A DNA stretch of 64,000 nucleotides, taken from Candidatus Levybacteria bacterium RIFCSPHIGHO2_01_FULL_36_15b. GTDB lineage: Bacteria > Patescibacteriota > Microgenomatia > Levybacterales > UBA12049. The translations under genes and the position numbers were made by a program. The notes under the pieces were generated by a model, which was not told the DNA's origin, made no database searches, and worked only from the letters and a program-made list of their open reading frames with translations. The stretch covers positions 204,719-268,718 of the forward strand of contig MFNK01000003.1 of NCBI GenBank assembly GCA_001782045.1. The letters run 5' to 3'. This document shows positions 8,350 to 29,297 of this stretch, piece by piece (the stretch's first letter is position 1; each line of letters opens with the position of its first letter).

Positions 8350-10600
8350 AAGTTTTATAAATGCTAACAATTGGAGCACCCCCTGAAATAATTTGGTGTA
8401 CTAACTTATAATCTCTTTTAATACTTGAGTCGTCAAATCCTTCTCTTAAGACGTGATAATAATTTACTACAATGTAATCATACTTCTTTCCATCTTTATA
8501 GAGCTCAAGATTCAAATTCTTAATATTTGGAAAGCTTTTTGGAGGATTTACGGCTAATCCCACGTTTGACTCTTTAGGAGCATTTTGTTCTAAATAAATT
8601 GCAGCTTCTCGCATGCCATCGCCCCACCATCCCAAATGAAAATATTTTTTTTCATAAACCCCCTTCTGTCCTCCAACTAGCTCGTTATAATAATTTAAAA
8701 AATAAGGAGCATTATTTTTTACAATTATTAATAAATACGCTAAAACAATTAAAAGAATAATTATCTTAGAAAATGATGTTTTAATAAACTTAAATTTATT
8801 TTTTAGAAAAATTGTTATGGCGTATGCACCCATTCCAGCAATAATTGAAAGGGGAACATAAATTTCAATAATATAGCGTACTCCGTGCATTCTCCATGGG
8901 TAAAAAGATTGTATAAATGGAAAAATAAACCAAATAATCAAACTTATATTGATCCAGCTTCTATTTTTATCTATAAATTTTAAGCCAAGTAAAAATAAAA
9001 TAATAAGTAATAACGGCGTCGTGATAAAAAACATTGTTGGAAAATAAATAACCGGGCTTAAAATCAATTTTCCCCAAAATACTTCAGGGGGCGCAGTATT
9101 AACTAACCAGATTTTTTTATTTACTTCGGCAATATAATCAAGGTGGGTATACGGCATCGGCCAAAAGACAACAAATGTCAAAATGGATACAAATATAATT
9201 ATAAAAAACGAATAGATTATCTTCCTATTGAATAGTTTTATATTTGTTTTATTGTACAGATAATAAGTTAAGTAAAATAATCCATATAAGGGAAAAAGAA
9301 GTCCATTGGATTGTTTAGTTAAAAGAGCTAATCCTGTAATTATTCCAACTAATACTGCTTTTTTATACGAGAAGCTTCTAAGCAACCTATAAAACACGTA
9401 AACACCCAGTGTAAAGAAGAACATTAAAAAACTTTCTGTCGTTACTTGTTGCGAAAGCCCGACAAAAAATGGAAGTAGTAAAAATATAATTGCAGCGGAA
9501 AATGCTACAAATACCGATGCTAGTTCTAAAGTGAAAATAAAAACTAAAACTGCAGAAAGACTTCCAACTATAGATGAAAAAATTCTTGAATAAGTGTAAT
9601 TATAATTAAATACTGGATTGCCGCTAGAATCAAGTTTATCAACATCTAAATGAGCAGTTAGTCCATATAGATATTTAACTAAAGGGGGATGATCATAAGT
9701 AGTATAAAAAAAACTGTTTCCAAAATCCCCCACTTTTAAAAGTTCTATCATTTTATATCCTTGCTCAATATATTCAGGCTCATCCCACGTTCTTCCCATT
9801 TGATTCAAAGTAGAAATTCTTACAGATAAAGCGAGCAAAAATATCACGAGGCATAAAAAAAATTTATTTTTATAAAAAATAGGAAGTTCATGCATAATTT
9901 TCATTTTTATAACGAAGAATAAAGAATAAAATAGTTCTTTAATACTAACATTCGATTTTCCAAATTTTCTGTAATTCCAAGTAATTGGAACCTCACCTAT
10001 GCTAAATCCTTTGATATGTAGTTTATATAAGGACTCTGATAATGTAATAAATCCCTTAGACTCAATATCGCTCCTCAGAAGCTCAGCCACTGCTTTTCTA
10101 CTATATGCTCTAAATCCGCTCGTAAAATCGGTTACCTTAATGCCTAGCCAAAATCTTAAAAAAACGTTTATAAGCCTACTTAATATAGTTCTTTGTTTTT
10201 CAATATTTTTAATCTTCCCTCCCGGAAGGTAACGAGATCCAATAATAAGATCATAATTTCCTAACTCATCCTTTTCCAAGAATCGTTTAATTTCATTTGG
10301 ATCATGCGCCAAATCGGAGTCCATTTCTAAAAATAGATCTGAATTGTTTTTTCTAAATGCAATTTTGAAACCATCCAACACTGCGCTTCCCCTACCTAGT
10401 TTTTTTATTCTTGATATAAGACCTACTTGTTTATATTTATTTACTATAGATTTTATAATTCTATTCTCTTCATATGATGAATCATCGACTAAATATATCA
10501 GTGCTTCGGGATAGAGACGGTTTACTTTTTGTAGTAATATTTTGAGACTTTTTGACTCATTAAAGGAAGGAATTATTATTGAAGGAACATTATTTTTCAT
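8342..10600 (-). CDS. Fusion protein: polyprenyl-phosphate sugar synthase-like GT2 (DPM1/GtrB/ArnC type) plus C-terminal GT-C (PMT/ArnT-like) membrane domain
   Basis: Residues 1-235: IIIPSFNE, YLVDDSS, EMDSDLAHDP, GSRY, DFTSGFRAYSRK, close to the DPM1/GtrB pattern. Residues 240-752: more than 10 TM helices with a WDEPEYIEQGY loop (DE motif) and a soluble C-terminal domain. Confidence 0.75.
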   Translation of the reverse strand: MKNNVPSIIIPSFNESKSLKILLQKVNRLYPEALIYLVDDSSYEENRIIKSIVNKYKQVGLISRIKKLGRGSAVLDGFKIAFRKNNSDLFLEMDSDLAHDPNEIKRFLEKDELGNYDLIIGSRYLPGGKIKNIEKQRTILSRLINVFLRFWLGIKVTDFTSGFRAYSRKAVAELLRSDIESKGFITLSESLYKLHIKGFSIGEVPITWNYRKFGKSNVSIKELFYSLFFVIKMKIMHELPIFYKNKFFLCLVIFLLALSVRISTLNQMGRTWDEPEYIEQGYKMIELLKVGDFGNSFFYTTYDHPPLVKYLYGLTAHLDVDKLDSSGNPVFNYNYTYSRIFSSIVGSLSAVLVFIFTLELASVFVAFSAAIIFLLLPFFVGLSQQVTTESFLMFFFTLGVYVFYRLLRSFSYKKAVLVGIITGLALLTKQSNGLLFPLYGLFYLTYYLYNKTNIKLFNRKIIYSFFIIIFVSILTFVVFWPMPYTHLDYIAEVNKKIWLVNTAPPEVFWGKLILSPVIYFPTMFFITTPLLLIILFLLGLKFIDKNRSWINISLIIWFIFPFIQSFYPWRMHGVRYIIEIYVPLSIIAGMGAYAITIFLKNKFKFIKTSFSKIIILLIVLAYLLIIVKNNAPYFLNYYNELVGGQKGVYEKKYFHLGWWGDGMREAAIYLEQNAPKESNVGLAVNPPKSFPNIKNLNLELYKDGKKYDYIVVNYYHVLREGFDDSSIKRDYKLVHQIISGGAPIVSIYKTSK

Positions 10601-17783: not shown

Positions 17784-17855
17784 TGGACTCGAGAGGATTC
17801 GAACCTCTGACATCTTCAATGTGAATGAAGCGCTCTACCACTGAGCTACGAGTCC
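17784..17855 (-). tRNA. tRNA-Val (anticodon CAC)
   Basis: Minus-strand sequence GGACTCGTAGCTCAGTGGTAGAGCGCTTCATTCACATTGAAGATGTCAGAGGTTCGAATCCTCTCGAGTCCA folds as a canonical cloverleaf: 7-bp acceptor GGACTCG/CGAGTCC, D-arm TAGCTCAGTGGTAGAGC, anticodon stem CTTCA/TGAAG with loop TTCACAT, T-arm AGAGGTTCGAATCCTCT. CCA is not encoded. Confidence 0.8.
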
Positions 17856-19922: not shown

Positions 19923-21005
19923 TCAGCGTATTGAAAGTGTTTCCCGATCTTTGTAAGCCTTGCTTATGGATGTTAATAAGCCTAAAAAAATAAAATTTGA
20001 AACAAGAGAACTGCCTCCATAAGAAACAAAAGGCAATGTTATACCAACTATTGGCATTATTCCCATGTTCATACCAATATTTACAAATAGCTGGACAGCG
20101 ATCACAAAGAAGAATATAGCTAAGAAATTTCTATGAAATTTATTTTGCGTATTTATTATATATTTCATTATTTTATATAAAATAAATCCAAAACAAAAAA
20201 GCACGATGGCAACTCCAATAAATCCCAGCTGCTCAGAAATTGTTGCAAAAATAAAATCTGTCTGTCTTTCTGGCAAAAAACGCAGTCCAGATTGAGTACC
20301 TTGTCCAATTCCCTTGCCTGAAATCATGCCAGAGCCAACGGCAATCACAGATTGTATAACATTGTAGGATGTACCTAAAGGATCGCTACTTGAGTTCACA
20401 AAAGTTAAAATTCGCTGTTTTTGATAGTCATGTAAGAACTGAAACAAAAATGGAATTGCAAGTGCAAACGGAACTGAAACAAATAAAAAATACCTAAAAG
20501 GAAAACCCGCAAACAAAAGAGCACAAATTACGACAAGAGCATAAATAATTGCATTGCCTAAATCAGGCTGAAGATAAATAAGAAAGAATAACGGAGCAAG
20601 TAAAATAAATACTTGAAGAAATTCTTTAAAGTTAAAATATTTTATATTTGAAAGGTGACTTGCTAGGACAATTGCCAAAAACGGTTTAAGAATTTCAGAA
20701 AATTGAATCCTAAGTCCAAATAATTCTATCCATCTTACCGCGCCTCTTGATTCAATACCCAAAATTAATACTACAGAAAAAATAACAAGTGAAAATATAT
20801 AAATATGTTTAGAAAAAAATTTTAAAATATCTAAATTTGATTGTGAAATAAAAATAAAAATAAAAACAGATAACAAGAAAAGAATTAATTGTCCATTAAA
20901 AAATAAGGGATTAAGTGAAAAAAGCGTTACCAAACTTAACACAGAAAGAATAACTACCGGAACAAGAAGTCCAAAATCTAAATCTCTGAAAATAATTTTA
21001 CTCAT
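19923..21005 (-). CDS. rodA: SEDS family peptidoglycan glycosyltransferase (RodA/FtsW-like)
   Basis: 10-TM protein with a GSGMISGKGIGQGTQ...LPERQTDFIFATISEQLGFIG signature. A second SEDS gene sits in the dcw cluster (ftsW), so this one is tentatively rodA. Confidence 0.75.
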   Translation of the reverse strand: MSKIIFRDLDFGLLVPVVILSVLSLVTLFSLNPLFFNGQLILFLLSVFIFIFISQSNLDILKFFSKHIYIFSLVIFSVVLILGIESRGAVRWIELFGLRIQFSEILKPFLAIVLASHLSNIKYFNFKEFLQVFILLAPLFFLIYLQPDLGNAIIYALVVICALLFAGFPFRYFLFVSVPFALAIPFLFQFLHDYQKQRILTFVNSSSDPLGTSYNVIQSVIAVGSGMISGKGIGQGTQSGLRFLPERQTDFIFATISEQLGFIGVAIVLFCFGFILYKIMKYIINTQNKFHRNFLAIFFFVIAVQLFVNIGMNMGIMPIVGITLPFVSYGGSSLVSNFIFLGLLTSISKAYKDRETLSIR

Positions 21006-23964
21006 TGGAAATGGAGAACTCTTTTCCTTCTTTTAGCTCTTTTACTTGGGCTCGTTTTTTAATAAAGCCTTCATATTCCTTCGGCCAGAATGGAAGTGTA
21101 ATATTAACTTTTTGATCTGGTTTCGTTTCAAGTTTTTTTCTCTGTTCCTGAATTTTTCTGACGATATCACGGGCCAAGCCAAAATTTAGATCAAGATTTT
21201 CATCGTTTGTTTGAGCCTCGACTGTATAATCCTGAATTTTTTTGTCAAATTTTAAATCGTAAATATTTGTCTCCCCCTTAACTACCCCTAGAACATCATC
21301 TGAAATGCTTTCAGGACCATTATATTTTGCCTTTCTTATTGGAATTCTAACCTTAACTTCTCTCTCTTTTCTTAAAGAATGTATTAATTCTGCAACCTTT
21401 TTTCCATTCACCATTTTGTTTTGTAAACTTATATCAATTAATTTATCATCGTATTTGGGAAAATCCTCTAAGTGAACTGATTCACTATTGGTCAGATTAA
21501 CATACATTTCCTCGGATAGAAATGGAATAAAAGCACCAAGAAGTTTTGTATACTCTGTTAATACGTACCATAAGACAAGAAGGCAAGTTTTTTTATCTTT
21601 TTCATTATCTGAATAAACTGCCACTCTGTCTCTTGATCGTCTGACATACCAATTCGATAAATCGTTTATTACAAAATTTTCTATATCCTCAACTGCTCTA
21701 TCTACCTGATACAATTCAATAAAGGTTTTTACATTTTTTATAGATTCGTTAAGTCTTGAAATTATCCATTTGTCTAAAACGTTATCGGAAGACAAACTAT
21801 ATTTTCGCGGAGGCTTAAAATTGTTCAAATTTGCATAGGTAACAAAGAACGAATATACGTTCCACAGTCTTAGATGAAACAAACGTCTAATTTCATCGGC
21901 AACATGATAGCCAAAGCTTAGATTGAGTTCGGGATTTTGTCTTAAATACATCCACCTCATTACGTCTACTCCGATTTTGTCTGCTGCTTCGTTGAATTCA
22001 ATCATATTTCCTTTACTTTTATGCATTTCTTCACCATGTTCATCTGTAACAGAAGCAAAACCAAGAATATCTTTAAATGGATTTGTATTATTTAAGGCTG
22101 TCGACATGGCTATTAATGAATAAAACCAATTTTTAAACTGACCGGGAAAACTCTCTGTTATAAAATTTGCCGGAAACCATTCGGAGGGCATAGTAGAGAA
22201 AGGAACTATACCTGCATCAAGCCAGGGATTTCCTACGTCTGGAATTCTAGAAATAACTTTCCCACATTTTGAACATTTTATTTTTACTTGATCTACCCAT
22301 GGTCTATGTGGAGATTTGCCTTCAAATTTTTCATATCCCTCAACGGCTTTATCTTTTAATTCTTCTTTTCCTGCTATAACATCAAAATTTCCGCACTTTT
22401 TACATTCCCAAATTGGCAGCGCCAGTCCCCAATATCTTTTTTTTGAAATTAACCAATCATGCATATTTTTAAGCCAATCGAGCTCTCTATCCAATCCCCA
22501 ATCTGGCAGCCAAGTAATTTTTTTTGCTACATCAATCATTTGTTCTCTATAAGTTTTTTTTGTATTGTCTTTTTTATCCATAGCTATATACCATTCATCA
22601 ACCACCCGCCAAACCAATTCAGTTTTACATCTCCAGCAAGTTGGATATCTGTGTATAATTTTTTGTACTTTAAATAAAAACTTGGGCTTTGATTGTTTTA
22701 AATAATCGATTATTATTTCAGGATTTTTCTTTGCATTTTTTCCGCTAAATTCACTTAAGCCTTTGACATAAGTTGCATCTTCTTCAATAGGAGCAATTAC
22801 GGGAAGGTTATATTTTTTACCAAGCTTGAAATCTTCTCCTCCTGCGCCTGTTGCGACATGCAAAAGACCAGTGCCTTCAGAATCCACAACTACCTCCGAT
22901 GCATCGATCACTGAGTGAAAAACTGTGACATTTTCTTCCCTCGCCTTTCTTACTAGAGAAAAGTCATCGAATGGGGCTTGGTATTTTAATTTCAGTATTT
23001 CTGTTGTCGATATTCCTTCTATATACTCTATATTCCTCTGTGATTCATCCATTATCCACTGTTCAAGCGAGACCACTGCGTTGTCTTTTTGTCTAATCCT
23101 CGTAGGAGGTTTCCTCTCTTCTCCTAGATGTAGGAATATTAATTTCTCTCCAGATACTCTATCTTTCCAAATACCATAATCATATTTAGTATTAATTCCA
23201 ATCGCAACGTTAGCCAAAACTGTCCATGGAGTTGTTGTCCAAACCAAGAAATACGTGTTATCCATGTCTATAATTGGCAACTTGAAGAATATTGTGTCGT
23301 GTGCTATTTCCTTATACTCTTCTGTCAATATTTCCATTTGAGAAATTGCTGTGCCGCATCTAGGGCACCAGGGAACACTATCGTGTCCTTTATACAGCCA
23401 CCCTTTTTCATTTACTACTTTTAAGAAATTCCAAATTGCATAATTGTTTTCGTCCGATGATGTATGATAGGAGTTTTCCCAATCCATAAAATATCCAAGC
23501 CGCTTTGACTGCTCTGTCTGAATTTTGGAAAATTTTGCAACTCTTGCTTTACATAAATTTATAAACTTCTCGAGACTTTTAAACTTGTCTCCGGCAACTA
23601 AATTTTCTATGTCTTTTTTGCTCTTAAGGCCAAGTTCTTTCTCTACTTCTACCTCTACCCATAGTCCTTGCTCATCAAATCCGTTTTGAAATCTTTGTTT
23701 CTTTCCGTTCATATTCCAATATCTTTGCCAAAAATCTTTGTAAGTTCTTCCCCATGCATGATGTACTCCCATTGGGTTATTTGCGGTAATTGGACCGTCT
23801 AAAAATGAAAATTTTTCTTTTGATAAGTTATTTTTCTTAAGATATTTTTCAATAACTTTTTTGGCTTCCCACTTAATTAACCACTCTCTTTCTAGCGAGG
23901 AAAAATCAATTTGCGGATTTACTGATTTAAATTTTTTAGAGTCTTCACTATTTATTTTTGACAT
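20998..23964 (-). CDS. ileS: Isoleucyl-tRNA synthetase, type 2 (eukaryote/archaea-like)
   Basis: HIGH region PMGVHHAWGRTYKDFWQRY (type-2 pattern, cf. PHxGHAxxRxxKDxxxRY), KMSKS-like MHKSKGN, and two CxxC zinc knuckles (CPRCGT, CWRCKT; CKKCGN, CSKCGK). 988 aa. Confidence 0.9.
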   Translation of the reverse strand: MSKINSEDSKKFKSVNPQIDFSSLEREWLIKWEAKKVIEKYLKKNNLSKEKFSFLDGPITANNPMGVHHAWGRTYKDFWQRYWNMNGKKQRFQNGFDEQGLWVEVEVEKELGLKSKKDIENLVAGDKFKSLEKFINLCKARVAKFSKIQTEQSKRLGYFMDWENSYHTSSDENNYAIWNFLKVVNEKGWLYKGHDSVPWCPRCGTAISQMEILTEEYKEIAHDTIFFKLPIIDMDNTYFLVWTTTPWTVLANVAIGINTKYDYGIWKDRVSGEKLIFLHLGEERKPPTRIRQKDNAVVSLEQWIMDESQRNIEYIEGISTTEILKLKYQAPFDDFSLVRKAREENVTVFHSVIDASEVVVDSEGTGLLHVATGAGGEDFKLGKKYNLPVIAPIEEDATYVKGLSEFSGKNAKKNPEIIIDYLKQSKPKFLFKVQKIIHRYPTCWRCKTELVWRVVDEWYIAMDKKDNTKKTYREQMIDVAKKITWLPDWGLDRELDWLKNMHDWLISKKRYWGLALPIWECKKCGNFDVIAGKEELKDKAVEGYEKFEGKSPHRPWVDQVKIKCSKCGKVISRIPDVGNPWLDAGIVPFSTMPSEWFPANFITESFPGQFKNWFYSLIAMSTALNNTNPFKDILGFASVTDEHGEEMHKSKGNMIEFNEAADKIGVDVMRWMYLRQNPELNLSFGYHVADEIRRLFHLRLWNVYSFFVTYANLNNFKPPRKYSLSSDNVLDKWIISRLNESIKNVKTFIELYQVDRAVEDIENFVINDLSNWYVRRSRDRVAVYSDNEKDKKTCLLVLWYVLTEYTKLLGAFIPFLSEEMYVNLTNSESVHLEDFPKYDDKLIDISLQNKMVNGKKVAELIHSLRKEREVKVRIPIRKAKYNGPESISDDVLGVVKGETNIYDLKFDKKIQDYTVEAQTNDENLDLNFGLARDIVRKIQEQRKKLETKPDQKVNITLPFWPKEYEGFIKKRAQVKELKEGKEFSISNE

Positions 23965-23973
23965 AATAAATTT

Positions 23974-24441
23974 TTAGTTAATTGAAACTAATTCAATTTC
24001 GAAAATAAGAGGTGAATTTGGCGGTATTGCTCCGGGAACTCCTTGCTCACCATATGCTAAAGAGGATGGAATGGTTAATTTTCTTATGCCTCCCTTTTTC
24101 ATTCCAACTAAGCCTTTTTCCCACCCTTGAATAACCTGTCCAGCTCCTACATTAAATTGAAAAGTCTCATTGCGATCATAAGAGCTATCAAACTTTGTAC
24201 CGTTAGTTAAAGTACCTGTGTAATTTACTTCAACTATGTCCCCTTCTTTTACAGATACTCCTTGTCCTTCTTTTATATCTTCTATTTTAAGTTCATTTAT
24301 TTCCATAACTTGCTTTGTCGGCACGGGTGAACTAGAACTAGTTCCGTTTATAGTTGTTTTTGTCGTACTTGCATTATAAATAAAAAACGCAATAATTATT
24401 AAAACAAAAGCAGCTAAAATTATTCCTAAATTCCTGTTCAC
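23974..24441 (-). CDS. Membrane-anchored FKBP-type peptidyl-prolyl cis-trans isomerase
   Basis: N-terminal TM helix, Ser/Thr-rich linker, then the FKBP signature YTGTLTNGTKFDSS...FQFNVGAGQVIQGWEKGLVGMKKGGIRKLTIPSSLAYG. Confidence 0.8.
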   Translation of the reverse strand: MNRNLGIILAAFVLIIIAFFIYNASTTKTTINGTSSSSPVPTKQVMEINELKIEDIKEGQGVSVKEGDIVEVNYTGTLTNGTKFDSSYDRNETFQFNVGAGQVIQGWEKGLVGMKKGGIRKLTIPSSLAYGEQGVPGAIPPNSPLIFEIELVSIN

Positions 24442-24492
24442 CTGATAAATTATAACAGTAATTATGAGGGTAAAACAACTTAATTTTGAAAC

Positions 24493-26010
24493 TTACCTAA
24501 AATTTAGCCCAAGTTCAATATTTGGGTCGTGTTGAATTTTCTGCTCGTTTGTATTTAAATTAAATTTCTGAACAATATATCCTGATTTAAAATTTTTAAT
24601 TTCAACTGGTGTTATTTTAATATTTGCTTTATTTTCAATCCACCATTGATGTCCCATATATGGATTATCGGGCGGCGGAGGAGATGCAATTACATAAGTC
24701 GTACCTTTTTTTCCATATTCAAATGCATTTGAACGAGCTGCTTTAAATGAGTAAAGCATTGCATAACGCTGCTGGTAAGCATATGCATCAGGGGAATAAA
24801 TAAAGTACCCAAACTCTTTACCTTTTTGCTCTTCAATTACGCTTTTTGCAACTTGTTTTAAGGAAATCCAGGAATCCAGTTTTTTTCCAATAAAATTATT
24901 TTGTGTATCACTTATATAATTTTTTGCAAAATTGAAATTTAAAAATAAAACAACAAAAATAAGTGGAATAAAAATAAATCTTGAAATTCCCTTAGATAAT
25001 GTAACCAGCCAGATTATCGTTAACGGAACAAGTAAGTAAATATAGTGGTAAAGTATTACCCCTTTGTTAAAGTAGGAAAGTGCCATATATCCAAAATAGT
25101 AAAATAATAAAAGAAGCAGTAAGGGTTTTTGTTTTGTATTATTTTTAATATGAATAAATGTAAAAATAATAATTAAAGCAAATATCAAAACGGAAAGAGG
25201 TTCTATGTTTTTTGCAAGTATTTGCATAGAAACAGTGTTATTTATTCTGTCATTTACCCATTCATTTAAGGGAACCAAAAATGCCGAATTTCCTCCTAAA
25301 TTAAAGAGTGCTTTCGCCATGCCAAAGTTATGACGAAAGTCAAATGCTATAAAGTTAGATACGCCAATGGGCAAGATAATAAATGCAATCAAGTGCTTCC
25401 ATAGTTTATTTTTTATAATTAATCCCAAAATCAAAGCTCCCGAGAGCATGATAAAAAGTATTCCAACGCCGATATTTAAGTGGATAAAAGCAGCAAGGAT
25501 CATAATGTGAAAAGCGAGATATTTAGATTTTTTAGTTTGCAGATAACTGTAAATGGTATATAGAAAAGAAGGAATTAAAAAAAAATTTACTTCTGCATGA
25601 AAAACACTATTTATATGAGGAACTAAGTATGTAGAAAGCAAAGACACTCCAAGCAATGACTCTATTGTTCCAAACAATCTTCTTAATATAAAAAAAGTGC
25701 TAAGTAAAAAAATGAAGCCGAGTATCACCCAAAACCATGCAGTTATAACTGGGTTACCCTGTCCAATTAAGTACGCCGGGTAGTTTACATAAGTCCACAA
25801 TGGTCCATGAAAAACGCCTTGAGTATTTGAACGTGGTCCTATTAAAACAATTTTCTTTTGATCAAGTTCCTGTAAAAGAAGAAAATCCCGTCCTATATCA
25901 TTTGTAAGTTTTATTTCACCTTGCAGAGGTAAATATGCTAAAAGATAAAGACTATAAAAAATAAATAGAATTATTATTGCAATAAATACTACTTTAACTT
26001 GCTTCAGCAT
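24493..26010 (-). CDS. GT-C-like polytopic membrane protein (paralog of the C-terminal domain of 1720..3903)
   Basis: 505 aa, more than 10 TM helices. DIGRDFLL and HGPLWTY motifs match YGDIGWFYLSARD and HQGPIWTY in the 1720..3903 fusion. C-terminal soluble domain. Confidence 0.5.
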   Translation of the reverse strand: MLKQVKVVFIAIIILFIFYSLYLLAYLPLQGEIKLTNDIGRDFLLLQELDQKKIVLIGPRSNTQGVFHGPLWTYVNYPAYLIGQGNPVITAWFWVILGFIFLLSTFFILRRLFGTIESLLGVSLLSTYLVPHINSVFHAEVNFFLIPSFLYTIYSYLQTKKSKYLAFHIMILAAFIHLNIGVGILFIMLSGALILGLIIKNKLWKHLIAFIILPIGVSNFIAFDFRHNFGMAKALFNLGGNSAFLVPLNEWVNDRINNTVSMQILAKNIEPLSVLIFALIIIFTFIHIKNNTKQKPLLLLLLFYYFGYMALSYFNKGVILYHYIYLLVPLTIIWLVTLSKGISRFIFIPLIFVVLFLNFNFAKNYISDTQNNFIGKKLDSWISLKQVAKSVIEEQKGKEFGYFIYSPDAYAYQQRYAMLYSFKAARSNAFEYGKKGTTYVIASPPPPDNPYMGHQWWIENKANIKITPVEIKNFKSGYIVQKFNLNTNEQKIQHDPNIELGLNFR

Positions 26011-26055: not shown

Positions 26056-27717
26056 ATGAATAATCTAAAAAGTTTATCAACAAAAACTGTACTAATTTTA
26101 TTATTTATAATTTTTGTTGCGGGTGCCTTCTTGAGATTTAATAACCTATCAGCAATACCAGCAGGGTTTCAAATGGATGAAGCCTCAAAGGGATATAGCG
26201 CTTATTCGCTACTTAAAACAGCAAGGGATGACAATAATATTTTTTTTCCGTTTAATATAGATATTTTTGGGGATAATAGCCCGGCGGGATATCATTATAG
26301 TGCAATCATTCCTGTTGCAATATTTGGATTAAGTGAATTTGCGGTTCGCTTTCCCGGGGCTATCTTTGGAAGTTTAACAATATTTGCTTTTTACTTTTTA
26401 ACATATTCAATATTTAAAGAGAAAAAACTAGGTTTATTAAGCGCACTGCTTCTTGCAACTTCCCCTTGGCATATAAATATGTCCAGGGCAAGCAGCGAAT
26501 CTTTAGTCGCTTTATTTTTTATAGTTTTGGGGTTTGCATTAATATTTTGGAGTCTTAAGACACAAAAAGTCGTACATGTTTTCTTTGCAACAATAGCTCT
26601 TTCATTAAGTTTTTTCTTTTACCAAACTCCGAGGCTTTTTGTTCCGGTTTTATTTTTTGTACTTTTAATTTTTATTCTTAAAACTTGGAAGTTAAAAATT
26701 GATAAAGATTATAAAAATTCATTAATAATTTCTTTTATTTTTTTAATCTCGCTTGTATTTACTTTGTTTTTTATTATTCCCGGAGGAAATAGAAGATTCA
26801 CGCAAGTAAATATATTTAGTGCCGCCGAAACAAAATTAGTTTTGGATGAACAAATAAAAAACGAGGGCGTAGTCGGAACAAGTCCTATAATTTCTCGCGT
26901 TTACGATAATAAAATTGTTGGCTTTACCCAAACCTATGTTTCCAACTATCTTAATCATTTCTCTTTTGACTATTTGTTTGTCAAAGGGCTTCCCCCTTGG
27001 TATCAAATTCCAAGTATTGGGGTTTTCTATTTAGTTTCTCTGCCATTTTTTTTATTAGGATTAGTTTTGCTTTTAACAAATAAAAATAATCTTTACAAAA
27101 TTCCAATTATATGGCTTGCTATTGGACCAACGGCTGCTGCGATATCAACGGAGGCTAATAATTTGCAAAGATCTTTAGTTATGTATCCAATGTTTGAAAT
27201 ATTTACAGCGTTTGGGTTGATTTATCTGTTTTCAAAAATAAAAAATAGCAAAATTTGGCTGGCTGTTATTGTTTTATTTGCGCTAAATTTTATCTATTTT
27301 TATCATCAGTACTATACACTTTCAAGGGTATTTCAGCCATGGTATAGAAATAATGGTTTTAAAGAGATGATTCAGGCTATAAGTAAAGACTATGAAAAAG
27401 CGGATAAGATAGTTACTACTAAATCCGGTGGAGGTTATCCTCTTTTCCAGTTTTATATTAAATATGACCCTGTAAAATATCAAAGTGAAGGTTCTCCAAA
27501 AGATAAAAATTATAAAGGCTTTGGCAAATTTTTCTTTACTCCAGATAATTGCCCGTTTATTTCTAAAGACCCATTAATTCCAAGAAATGGGAAATTAATA
27601 TTTGTAGAAGACGGAAGCTGTAAAGAAACAAAAGCGCTAGAAGGCAAAATATTTAAATATATTTTAAGAGTGGACGGAACTAAGGCTTTTAGAATTGTAT
27701 ATTTAGATAGTTTCTAA
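26056..27717 (+). CDS. ArnT/PMT-like GT-C membrane glycosyltransferase
   Basis: 553 aa, polytopic. First extracytoplasmic loop FQMDEASKGYSAYSL matches the DE-x7-A motif of ArnT/PMT (GT83/GT39) enzymes. Confidence 0.65.
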   Translation: MNNLKSLSTKTVLILLFIIFVAGAFLRFNNLSAIPAGFQMDEASKGYSAYSLLKTARDDNNIFFPFNIDIFGDNSPAGYHYSAIIPVAIFGLSEFAVRFPGAIFGSLTIFAFYFLTYSIFKEKKLGLLSALLLATSPWHINMSRASSESLVALFFIVLGFALIFWSLKTQKVVHVFFATIALSLSFFFYQTPRLFVPVLFFVLLIFILKTWKLKIDKDYKNSLIISFIFLISLVFTLFFIIPGGNRRFTQVNIFSAAETKLVLDEQIKNEGVVGTSPIISRVYDNKIVGFTQTYVSNYLNHFSFDYLFVKGLPPWYQIPSIGVFYLVSLPFFLLGLVLLLTNKNNLYKIPIIWLAIGPTAAAISTEANNLQRSLVMYPMFEIFTAFGLIYLFSKIKNSKIWLAVIVLFALNFIYFYHQYYTLSRVFQPWYRNNGFKEMIQAISKDYEKADKIVTTKSGGGYPLFQFYIKYDPVKYQSEGSPKDKNYKGFGKFFFTPDNCPFISKDPLIPRNGKLIFVEDGSCKETKALEGKIFKYILRVDGTKAFRIVYLDSF

Positions 27718-27764
27718 TTCTTATTCCTCAAGAATGTGGGATGTCCCATTATGTCATGTTCAAG
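27714..27764 (-). repeat. Degenerate duplicate of the ftsZ 3' end (FtsZ C-terminal-peptide coding segment), copy A
   Basis: Hand alignment to 28185..28238: about 70% identity over 51 bp. The 12-mer TGGGATGTCCCA is exact (27737..27748 and 28209..28220). Out of the ORF144 frame it reads LEHDIMGHPTFLRNKN-stop, against Fts[17 protein letters not shown]-stop. Two compensating 1-nt indels flank the 12-mer. Confidence 0.6.
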
Positions 27765-28183
27765 TTTAATTGAATCGGATTAACCTTTGCTCCTTCTGGA
27801 ATAGGTGGATAATCTCCTGGCTGGGTATCTCTCCATCTTATTCTTGTTTCACCATCATCGCTGATTAAATTTTCGTCATTTATTTGAGGCCCAACCAATA
27901 TTTTCCGATTCTTTTGTTCATTTTCCCTAACGTTCCAAGTGTAAATCTCTATTGAGTCCTCTGAAATAGGTTTAACAAACTTTAGATCAGTATTAAATGC
28001 TTGTCCGATTTCAACGTTTTTATGAAGTTGCATTGGATTTAAAAGTTCAAGATCCGAACTATGAATTAAAGTAATTACGTCACTTTCCTTGATAGAATAA
28101 CTCCTATATTCAAGGACTTTACTTTTTTCAGTTTTCCTGAGTCCGAATAAACTTTTGTTATCCCAAACTGCTTCAACTGTCAT
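27749..28183 (-). CDS. Hypothetical 144-aa protein, translationally coupled to ftsZ (ATG 1 nt after the ftsZ stop)
   Basis: ORF with ATG at complement(28181..28183); the ftsZ stop is at 28185..28187. No family recognised; acidic, no TM. Flanked by the two ftsZ-tail repeat copies. Confidence 0.5.
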   Translation of the reverse strand: MTVEAVWDNKSLFGLRKTEKSKVLEYRSYSIKESDVITLIHSSDLELLNPMQLHKNVEIGQAFNTDLKFVKPISEDSIEIYTWNVRENEQKNRKILVGPQINDENLISDDGETRIRWRDTQPGDYPPIPEGAKVNPIQLNLNMT

Positions 28184-28184
28184 A

Positions 28185-28238
28185 TTAGTTTTTATTTCTC
28201 AAAAACGCTGGGATGTCCCAAGTGTCATCTTCTTCTTC
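28185..28238 (-). repeat. ftsZ 3' end encoding the conserved C-terminal peptide (copy B of the direct repeat)
   Basis: Encodes [16 protein letters not shown]-stop. DIPAFLR is the canonical FtsZ C-terminal peptide that binds FtsA/ZipA/SepF. Partner of 27714..27764. Confidence 0.6.
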
Positions 28239-29297
28239 AACAGGCGGCTCAACTGGAGGAGGCGGTTGGTTTGGATCTTGTGACTGTGCTTGTATGGGTT
28301 CGTTATTTAAAACCGGCGTTACAAATTCCTTAAGAACTTGCCTGGCTTGGTCAAAGCCAGTGGCCACTACTGTAATTTTCAACTGGTCATGCATTGTGTC
28401 ATCAATTGTTGCTCCAAAAATTATGTTTGCGTCAGGATCTGCTGCTGATGCAATAATTTTTGCTGCTTCGTCAACTTCTGTCATCGTTAAATCTGGTCCA
28501 CCGGTAATATTAAAAAGCACGCCACGCGCTCCTTCCATGGAAATCTCAAGAAGGGGTGAAGCAATCGCTGATCTTGCTGCGGTTTGCGCTCTATTTTCTC
28601 CTACTCCAGTCCCGATTCCCATTAAAGCAGAACCGGCATTCTGCATAATTGATTTTACATCTGCAAAATCAACGTTAATAAGCCCGGGTTGAGTTATAAT
28701 TTCGGAAATTCCCTGCACCCCTTGTGTTAAAACTGAGTCGGCAACTTTAAATGCTTCAAGAAGGGATAATTTTTTATCGACTACATCTAGTATCCTTTGG
28801 TTGGGGATTACAATTAAAGTATCAACTTTATCTTTTAATTCTTCAATTCCGTCTTCTGCAGCAACCATTCTTCGAGTCCCTTCAAATGCAAAAGGTTTTG
28901 TAACAACCGCAACAGTTAATACATTCAATTCCTTTGCAGCCTGTGCGATAATTGGAGTTGCCCCTGTTCCTGTTCCTCCTCCCATTCCAGCGGCTAAAAA
29001 AAGCATGTCCGTACCATCAATTAGTTCTTTTATTTTTTCGTAAGATTCTTCTGCAGATTGCTTACCAACTTCTGGGTTTCCTCCTGAGCCAAGACCCTTT
29101 GTTAAGTCATCGCCTATTTGAAGTTTTGTAGCTGCTTGATTTAAAAGAAGCTGTTGTGCGTCTGTATTTACAGAAATAAAGTCAACTCCCCCAATGCTAC
29201 TCTGCGAAATCATGGAATTGAGTGCATTACCTCCTCCTCCACCTACACCCATAACTCTTATTTTTGCAAAATTGGTTGTTTGGGGTTTAATTAGCAT
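28185..29297 (-). CDS. ftsZ: Cell division GTPase FtsZ
   Basis: [13 protein letters not shown] (tubulin signature), the T7 loop region, NVDFADV, a Pro/Glu-rich linker, and the C-terminal peptide [10 protein letters not shown]. Confidence 0.95.

Follow-up and report, generated by a model that had tools for sequence, protein, structure and literature searches.

Prophages 21 and e14, which are inserted in the 3′ end of icd in Escherichia coli, are tyrosine-integrase elements that carry a replacement 3′ end for their target gene, and the partial copy that they displace differs from it largely at synonymous positions. In Streptococcus thermophilus, ICESt1 and ICESt3 occupy the 3′ end of fda together with cis-mobilizable elements (CIMEs), which have no recombination module and stand in tandem with integrase-bearing elements, a process known as accretion. 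The element ICEclc has an outward-facing promoter, Pcirc, at one end of its integrated form. Here, a comparable arrangement is described downstream of ftsZ in Candidatus Levybacteria bacterium RIFCSPHIGHO2_01_FULL_36_15b, which belongs to the Microgenomates of the Candidate Phyla Radiation (CPR). The DNA analyzed, referred to as the window, is a 64-kb stretch (64,000 nucleotides) of contig MFNK01000003.1, in which the end of ftsZ recurs on the far side of a 144-codon gene, ORF144. The results support the interpretation of this repeat as the scar of an integration at an ftsZ-tail attachment site that is widely used in Microgenomates.

As with the icd prophages, the insertion lies in the 3′ end of a protein gene, the protein is kept intact and the displaced copy shows mostly synonymous differences. 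Unlike icd, the target is the essential gene ftsZ, the repeat is just 30–45 nt long and encodes a partner-binding C-terminal peptide, the hosts are CPR Microgenomates, and many tiny integrase-less cassettes occur in arrays. The ICESt1/ICESt3 family is similar in the use of a housekeeping-gene 3′ end and in the att-flanked integrase-less elements arranged in tandem with integrase-bearing ones, but no genes for conjugation were seen in the present loci, the cassettes are far smaller (0.5–1.5 kb) and their mobilization in trans is putative. The locus also resembles islands and prophages at tRNA or tmRNA 3′ ends, where attP carries the target 3′ end, a partial direct repeat marks the far end and the integrase lies beside one end. 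In contrast to these, the target is protein-coding, so the copy on the element is constrained at the peptide level, which is visible in the synonymous-only differences. Finally, as in ICEclc, an outward promoter is found at the element end, which after circularization would read into the integrase or the first cassette gene; unlike Pcirc, it is a predicted promoter, recognized by its match to the consensus.

Repeat of the ftsZ End in the Window

The ftsZ gene (28185..29297, minus strand) is intact and encodes a protein of 370 aa that ends in the C-terminal peptide and matches the Pfam families Tubulin (E 4e-48) and FtsZ_C (E 2e-37). Gapped local alignment of the minus strand showed that the last 47–48 nt of the gene recur on the same strand just beyond ORF144, 28232..28186 pairing with 27761..27715. 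The working ftsZ 3′ end (copy B, 28185..28232, minus strand) and the displaced copy (copy A, the relic, 27714..27761, minus strand) are 472 nt apart. The alignment scores 43; of its 49 columns, 39 are matches, 6 are mismatches and 4 are gap positions. In 1000 first-order Markov randomizations of the 2 kb downstream, the scores were 20.9 ± 2.3 with a maximum of 36, and none reached the observed value. An earlier note on this DNA had described an imperfect repeat of the ftsZ end on both sides of ORF144; the repeat is real, and it is present in six assemblies. The similarity held, while the identity of about 70% estimated by hand was too low, the gapped alignment giving about 80%.

Both copies contain the 12-mer TGGGACATCCCA, at 27737..27748 in the relic and at 28209..28220 in ftsZ, where it forms the WDIP codons (both on the minus strand). 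It has exactly two sites in the 64 kb, even with one mismatch allowed, compared with about 0.08 occurrences expected, and the search for further sites that the note had proposed for the genome found no third one in the window. The 12-mer was rightly described as identical in both copies, but it is not an exact palindrome: it is an interrupted one, TGGGA-NN-TCCCA (5+2+5), with the two central bases changed in the reverse complement. A gapless repeat search recovered the 12-mer alone because indels flank it; in the gapped self-comparison of the region, the similarity extends over the full 47–48 nt.

The relic is damaged and non-coding, as the note had held. ORF144 ends in ...NLNMT-TAA and the same frame continues as WDIP-HS-stop, while FLRNKN-stop is readable in a different frame from WDIP due to a 1-nt deletion (CCAGCG in ftsZ, CCACA in the relic). 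The lesions are thus a TAA in place of CT before WDIP and the deletion after CCA. The relic with its stop and deletion is identical across six independent assemblies of the species, and therefore the lesions are real and not assembly errors. One of the six, a population variant of the species (locus L104, ~1419-1430; L numbers denote the loci compared), has a G>T change within the relic 12-mer (TGGTACATCCCA). The 12-mer is therefore not strictly held in the relic, and the variant is consistent with a freely drifting sequence.

The differences between the two copies in the FLRNKN-stop part follow a distinct pattern. Five of the seven codons differ, and all five base differences are at third positions and synonymous, a placement with P of about 0.001 if the differences fell at random. 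Judging from the sequences, unconstrained decay would not give synonymous-only differences; the relic would then be either translated, now or formerly, or both copies would descend from different working ftsZ ends.

ftsZ-Tail Copies in Related Genomes

A set of 80 ftsZ loci from different Levybacteria species was assembled with 4 kb of flank on each side, 78 of which contain the ftsZ stop. A position-weight matrix built from the 3′-terminal 33 nt of ftsZ was used to scan 77 related loci, covering 275 kb downstream and 382 kb upstream of the gene. The scan gave 29 extra ftsZ-tail copies, all of them downstream of ftsZ and on the same strand. In the DNA scanned there were no copies on the opposite strand and no genuine upstream copies, the lone upstream match being the ftsZ tail of L034 itself, which is three codons longer. 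At least one copy lies within 4 kb in about 23 of the 78 loci (~30%), with one to three copies per locus and arrays of 2–3 in several of them. The copies are not the ends of long open reading frames (ORFs), as stop codons lie just upstream.

The cargo between copies is unrelated from genome to genome and includes Doc/antitoxin, HicAB, NYN, a CAP12/Pycsar-type TIR protein, a methyltransferase, DUF4177, CNNM/CBS and Cas2-like/PaaX proteins, a content that is typical of mobile DNA. The region downstream of ftsZ is hypervariable, with most of its 315 ORFs having no counterpart in the other loci. The comparison of related ftsZ 3′ regions, which the note had recommended, thus revealed the same repeat–cargo–repeat layout again, solely downstream and on the same strand. 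In Levybacteria and in at least one other Microgenomates lineage, the last 30–45 nt of ftsZ, encoding (W)DIPAFLRxxN-stop, are directly repeated around inserted DNA.

The synonymous pattern was also found in 34 pairs of resident tail and relic compared over the final 27 nt. Synonymous changes account for 145 of the 170 differing codons, and the base differences are distributed as 43/6/151 over the first, second and third codon positions. Third-position identity between tail and relic is only about 30–65%. Therefore, neither copy in a genome is a recent duplicate of the other; they stem from different functional ftsZ ends and not from local duplication.

The best-conserved block over the 34 pairs is CCCGC (Pro-Ala codons), which starts in the last bases of the 12-mer, whereas the WDI part of the tail is kept in only about one third of the relics. 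The proposal that the 12-mer is a recombination core was thus upheld in part: the 12-mer overlaps the likely crossover region but is not itself the conserved core.

A second class of tail copies that start only at CCCGC was observed in L016 (5150), L019/L020 (5118), L032 (5131), L012 (6879), L030 (1366), L035 (6079) and L067 (7097). They follow the first copy after 14–60 nt of a GC-rich, hairpin-like spacer, e.g., cgaagttcggcgaggcaag, and in these genomes the ftsZ tail uses unusual Arg/Leu codons (CTT CGC CAA CGA). Such copies may represent empty cassettes, scars of excision or a structured element.

Integrase Islands

A tyrosine recombinase of 320–365 aa (Pfam Phage_integrase, E 3e-38) is encoded 100–210 nt past the ftsZ stop in 7 of the 78 loci. 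In an eighth locus, L044, a toxin–antitoxin cassette comes first, followed by a relic and then by the integrase, which brings the family to 8/78 loci; this order is what tandem accretion predicts. The enzyme is Xer-like but does not reach the curated cut-off scores set for XerC, XerD, XerA, XerS and integron integrases. Its family has hundreds of members at 60–70% identity in Levy-, Gottesman- and Curtissbacteria.

For three members of the family, the context was retrieved with flanks of 10 kb. Each time, the integrase directly follows ftsZ as the first gene, and the island closes with a distal, same-strand copy of the ftsZ tail of its own genome. This copy lies at +6343 nt in L097, at +9355 nt in L098/L099 (Gottesmanbacteria), where it reads IPAFLRQRS-stop, and at +7857 nt in L100, where it reads IPAFLRQRN-stop. 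In L100, ileS begins roughly 700 nt beyond the distal copy, with one short reverse-strand gene between them. The cargo of these islands includes a KAP NTPase, zeta toxin, HTH regulators and TerB_N.

The 100 nt before the distal copies form a conserved right-end arm, consisting of TTGAC-17-TATATT, then AGGTGTTTTT and then GAAGCTAGAAA. The first of these elements is promoter-like by its consensus match. The same arm precedes the relics of small integrase-less cassettes, e.g., in L081 and L085. These small cassettes thus have both the arm and the core in common with the integrase islands, and in L044 they occur in tandem with the integrase. In addition, the cores are surrounded by a GAAGC/GCTTC motif, which is enriched there at fixed positions.

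The orientation of the integrase gene beside the ftsZ end varies (L097, L098 and L100 versus L002, L022 and L051), while the post-core sequence and the right-end arm are common to both groups, which implies inversion of the integrase module within the element family. A LOOT RNA (Rfam RF03000, 69 bits versus a gathering score of 46) was observed at 8764-8873 (minus strand) of L009, inside a 6.3-kb integrase island downstream of ftsZ.

A Tail Copy in a Viral Contig

A search of viral contigs with the core gave one match, the 34.7-kb IMG/VR contig L086 (IMGVR_UViG_3300027835_000014). It carries GATGAC-TGGGACATCCCCGCATTCCTAAGGCAGAGGAATTAA, an ftsZ-tail reading frame that ends in a stop. The tail is flanked on one side by an XRE-type repressor and an integrase that, over its full length, is 28% identical to the island family (E 7e-29; PHROGs integrase). 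The opposite flank carries the post-core sequence, with its terminator-like hairpin, that the integrase loci have behind their ftsZ stop. When the viral collection was scanned for the GGGTGTG-box signature of FtsZ, there was no match on L086. By its sequence, the site looks attP-like.

FtsZ and the island integrase were also sought in viral contigs by peptide patterns, and nothing was found. The other viral contigs with ftsZ (L087–L093) belong to other bacteria, and the four of them that have a complete ftsZ end show no tail repeat. One of these contigs, the proviral L089 (IMGVR_UViG_3300032167_004266), comes from a different bacterium with an FtsZ 54% identical. It has a 355-aa ORF about 290 nt past the ftsZ stop, convergent with ftsZ, that spans the region matching the island integrases, with no tail repeat within the locus. 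The ftsZ end may serve as an integration site outside Microgenomates too.

ORF144 and Its Family

ORF144 (27749..28183, minus strand) is complete, with 144 codons, and is the only gene between the two copies. Its ATG lies 1 nt past the ftsZ stop, as the note had stated. A word-index protein search with ORF144 gave no match besides itself, and no Pfam family matched it; an exhaustive protein search returned 25 homologs, and the family comprises 26 cluster representatives. The AlphaFold2 model has a pLDDT of 92.9, and this confidently predicted fold had no match among solved structures. The FLRNKN tail is absent from all 24 homologs retrieved and read, which end at the same position as ORF144; a genuine C-terminal peptide on the homologs, which the note had named as evidence against a duplication relic, was thus not found. 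On these comparisons, ORF144 is best described as cargo that belongs to a real protein family and not as a protein with an FtsZ C-terminal peptide.

No homolog is present in any of the 80 Levybacteria ftsZ loci with their flanks. Among the seven family contexts with DNA, four directly follow an ftsZ stop of the Levybacteria type. The stop/start junctions are TAAtATG in the window, TAATG in L081, TAAaATG in L082 and TAAcATG in L085, so that the homologs in the last three start 0–1 nt past the ftsZ stop. ORF144 is probably expressed by read-through from ftsZ, with translational coupling to it, and may have a role in cell division.

In L081 and L085, the homolog is followed by the arm and then by the relic. 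The L081 relic is intact and lies about 190 nt beyond the stop of the homolog, to which it is not fused; in L082, no relic was found downstream of the homolog. The L085 relic is interrupted by an insertion of about 95 nt: at ~2590-2715, TGGGACATCC is followed by ~95 nt of unrelated sequence and then by CCGTAATTCTAAGGCAGAAGAATTAG. Either an insertion at the Ile-Pro codons or a rearrangement there would account for it. The break adjoins the block that is best conserved across the tail/relic pairs.

The N-terminus of the family, MT(V/I)E, is nearly invariant and is encoded by ATGACAGTTGAAGC (28170-28183 in the window; also in L081, L082, L085, L107 and L108). This sequence includes the GAAGC motif that is enriched around the cores, and the conservation may reflect constraint at the DNA level (a recombinase or arm site) as much as constraint on the protein. 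A truncated remnant, ATGACTGTTGAC, was observed directly after the second relic of L005. In L107 (~390-430), a promoter resembling that of the L085 arm (cttgatccaaaacttcaaaaagtatatattc) directly precedes the ATG of the ORF144 homolog, with no ftsZ-tail core between them.

The Window Cassette and Its Flanks

Compared with L081 and L085, the window cassette has lost the arm, and ORF144 runs straight into the damaged relic. No integrase was found in the cassette or anywhere in the 64-kb window. Since the cassette lacks both the integrase and the right-end arm and its relic is damaged, it is probably immobile and fixed in place. Known RNA families gave no match at the relic or the arm.

Beyond the relic lies a convergent gene for a membrane glycosyltransferase of the PMT_2 family (26056..27717, plus strand). 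Its stop and that of the relic overlap by 3 nt (27714-27716) within a common tetramer, TTAG/CTAA (27714-27717). The next gene encodes a 505-aa membrane protein (24493..26010, minus strand) with 52% identity over its full length (tblastn) to positions 337-1848 of L097. In L097, this ortholog lies just beyond the island, and a PMT_2 gene in the same orientation as in the window stands between it and the island relic. The synteny of the flank fits a relic that is the original ftsZ end beside host DNA.

The conserved backbone gene ileS (20998..23964, minus strand; 60% identity to the L007 IleRS) lies farther on. In several relatives it lies just downstream of ftsZ as the next conserved gene. The ftsZ–ileS spacing is 53 nt in L007 versus 4.2 kb in the window, and the L007 arrangement looks like an empty site. 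No further relics were found between the window relic and ileS. A metagenome scan for synteny by means of the downstream PMT_2 gene gave three loci, none of which was informative. The GC skew is negative throughout the site and the genes on either side are mostly on the minus strand. In addition, a coding sequence resembling an FKBP-type peptidyl-prolyl isomerase was observed between the 505-aa gene and ileS (23965-24492, minus strand), as well as a tRNA gene at 17784-17855 (minus strand).

Discussion

The relic is most likely the displaced original end of ftsZ, left by site-specific recombination of an element that carried its own ftsZ 3′ end. Recombination would join the host ftsZ to the element-borne tail, which keeps FtsZ intact, and the old tail would be pushed to the far end of the element. 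At each integration the copy of the element would become the real C-terminus of FtsZ and the relic would be the previous working end; presumably for this reason, the element copy is under selection at the peptide level and the differences are mostly synonymous. Copy B would then play the role of attL, the junction between target and insert, and the relic would be a remnant of attR; at the equivalent of copy B, the integrase islands of L097, L098 and L100 have their left boundary. Repeated integrations would build the cassette arrays, and the unit in the window would be a minimal integrase-less cassette with ORF144 as its only gene. The idea in the earlier note of an integrase-like insertion that restores the ftsZ 3′ end has gained from the recurrent geometry, the adjoining integrase family, the islands ending in tails and the attP-like viral site.

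Some observations weigh against this interpretation. The window itself has no integrase, and a role of such an enzyme in the insertion of the ORF144 cassette is what we infer from the islands of other genomes. The ftsZ tail (CCAGCG) and the relic (CCACA) of the window both deviate from the consensus CCCGC. No empty-site variant of the species turned up, the cassette being present in six of six assemblies. Of the seven ORF144-family contexts with DNA, three do not adjoin ftsZ; they have their own promoters and no ftsZ upstream. In addition, the L086 site is 360 nt from the contig end, where a junction of tandem elements is indistinguishable from a true attP.

The geometry would be the same if a circular or linear DNA fragment with an ftsZ tail had entered by transformation and been captured by a RecA-dependent single crossover within 30–45 bp, with no dedicated integrase involved. 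The lack of an integrase in the cassette and the window, as well as that of the conserved arm in the window cassette, would agree with such a capture. However, the homology is short and most third positions differ, which makes it a poor RecA substrate, while the specific right-end arm common to related cassettes and integrase islands and the restriction of the copies to one orientation and one site also speak against it. Homology-driven capture is thus considered unlikely. The alternative offered by the note was a tandem duplication of the ftsZ tail. In a local event of this kind, ORF144 would have arisen or been inserted between the copies afterwards, and two same-strand copies at a short distance are what it would leave. 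Nevertheless, unconstrained decay would alter all codon positions, whereas the copies differ at most synonymous sites, both in the FLRNKN-stop codons of the window and across the 34 pairs. The same geometry is also found with other cargo and integrases in other genomes, and a duplication was abandoned as hardly credible.

It was also considered that the repeat is kept for a function of its own. The tail copies could be short ORFs for a free FtsZ C-terminal peptide, or leaders that couple the translation of the next cassette gene: many relics have the promoter-like TTGAC-17-TATATT upstream, L081 and L044 contain intact 19-codon frames, the window frame would read MGHPTFLRNKN, and genes begin 1 nt past the relic stops in L019 and L030. 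However, the frame is broken or startless in L004, L005 (twice), L012, L074 and L085 and different in L041, and in the window the relic lacks a promoter arm and directly borders the end of a convergent gene, so a functional copy seems very improbable. The mini ORF for a free peptide was rejected because its frame is not conserved. Even less probable, to the point of being negligible, is that ORF144 had, or by recoding still has, an FtsZ-like C-terminal peptide with which it would compete with FtsZ or join it at FtsA. The in-frame WDIP past the ORF144 stop and the preservation of FLRNKN-stop at the amino-acid level would be explained, but such a tail is absent from all 24 homologs read, the L081 relic stands apart from the homolog, the stop and frameshift are fixed in six assemblies, and the same tail copies follow unrelated cargo elsewhere.

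Other known systems were compared with the locus as a whole. As in integrons, there are arrays of small genes at one fixed site, mostly co-oriented and rich in toxin–antitoxin systems, and some first genes are promoterless. Unlike integrons, there is no divergent IntI-type integrase, many cassettes have their own promoters, and the boundaries consist of a gene-end copy and an arm, with no recognizable attC (no formal attC search was made). An integron proper was rejected: the recombinase scores 93 bits versus the cut-off of 265 for TIGR02249, ftsA and ftsZ rather than an integrase lie upstream of the array, and the boundaries are ftsZ-tail copies. Integrative mobile elements exploiting Xer (IMEX) at dif are similar in that integrase-less elements accumulate in tandem at one site and the recombinase family is Xer-like, but here the recombinase is island-encoded and patchy (8/78 loci) and the site is not at the replication terminus. 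A dif or terminus site was rejected, as neither the GC skew nor the gene strand switches there. A diversity-generating retroelement was rejected as well: ORF144 is the only gene between the copies and has no Pfam match (no wider reverse-transcriptase search was made), and the differences include T/C, A/G and C/T at third positions.

A broader model, which goes well beyond the site-specific integration proposed above and is rather doubtful, would regard the ftsZ–ileS interval of Microgenomates as a cassette-accretion platform, integron-like on an essential gene. Integrase-less cassettes of 0.5–1.5 kb, each ending with a promoter arm and an ftsZ-tail core, would be captured and then shuffled in trans by the Xer-like integrase that the larger islands encode. 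The tail of an element would periodically become the FtsZ C-terminus, and first-position cassettes, the ORF144 family among them, would be translated together with FtsZ, possibly modulating division.

Conclusions

The mechanism is classical, that of a tyrosine-integrase element with a replacement 3′ end, while the target ftsZ and the CPR setting are new; no report of the ftsZ end as an integration site was found in a full-text literature search. The last dozen codons of ftsZ encode the peptide that binds FtsA and other partners, and a mobile element has probably provided the working FtsZ C-terminus of many Levybacteria. Little is known about the mobile elements of CPR bacteria, to which these hosts belong. 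The interval behind ftsZ forms a predictable hot spot for toxin–antitoxin and defense-type cargo, and the ftsZ tail could serve as a marker for islands, cassettes and viruses of uncultured hosts, which could link viral contigs to the bacteria that they infect.

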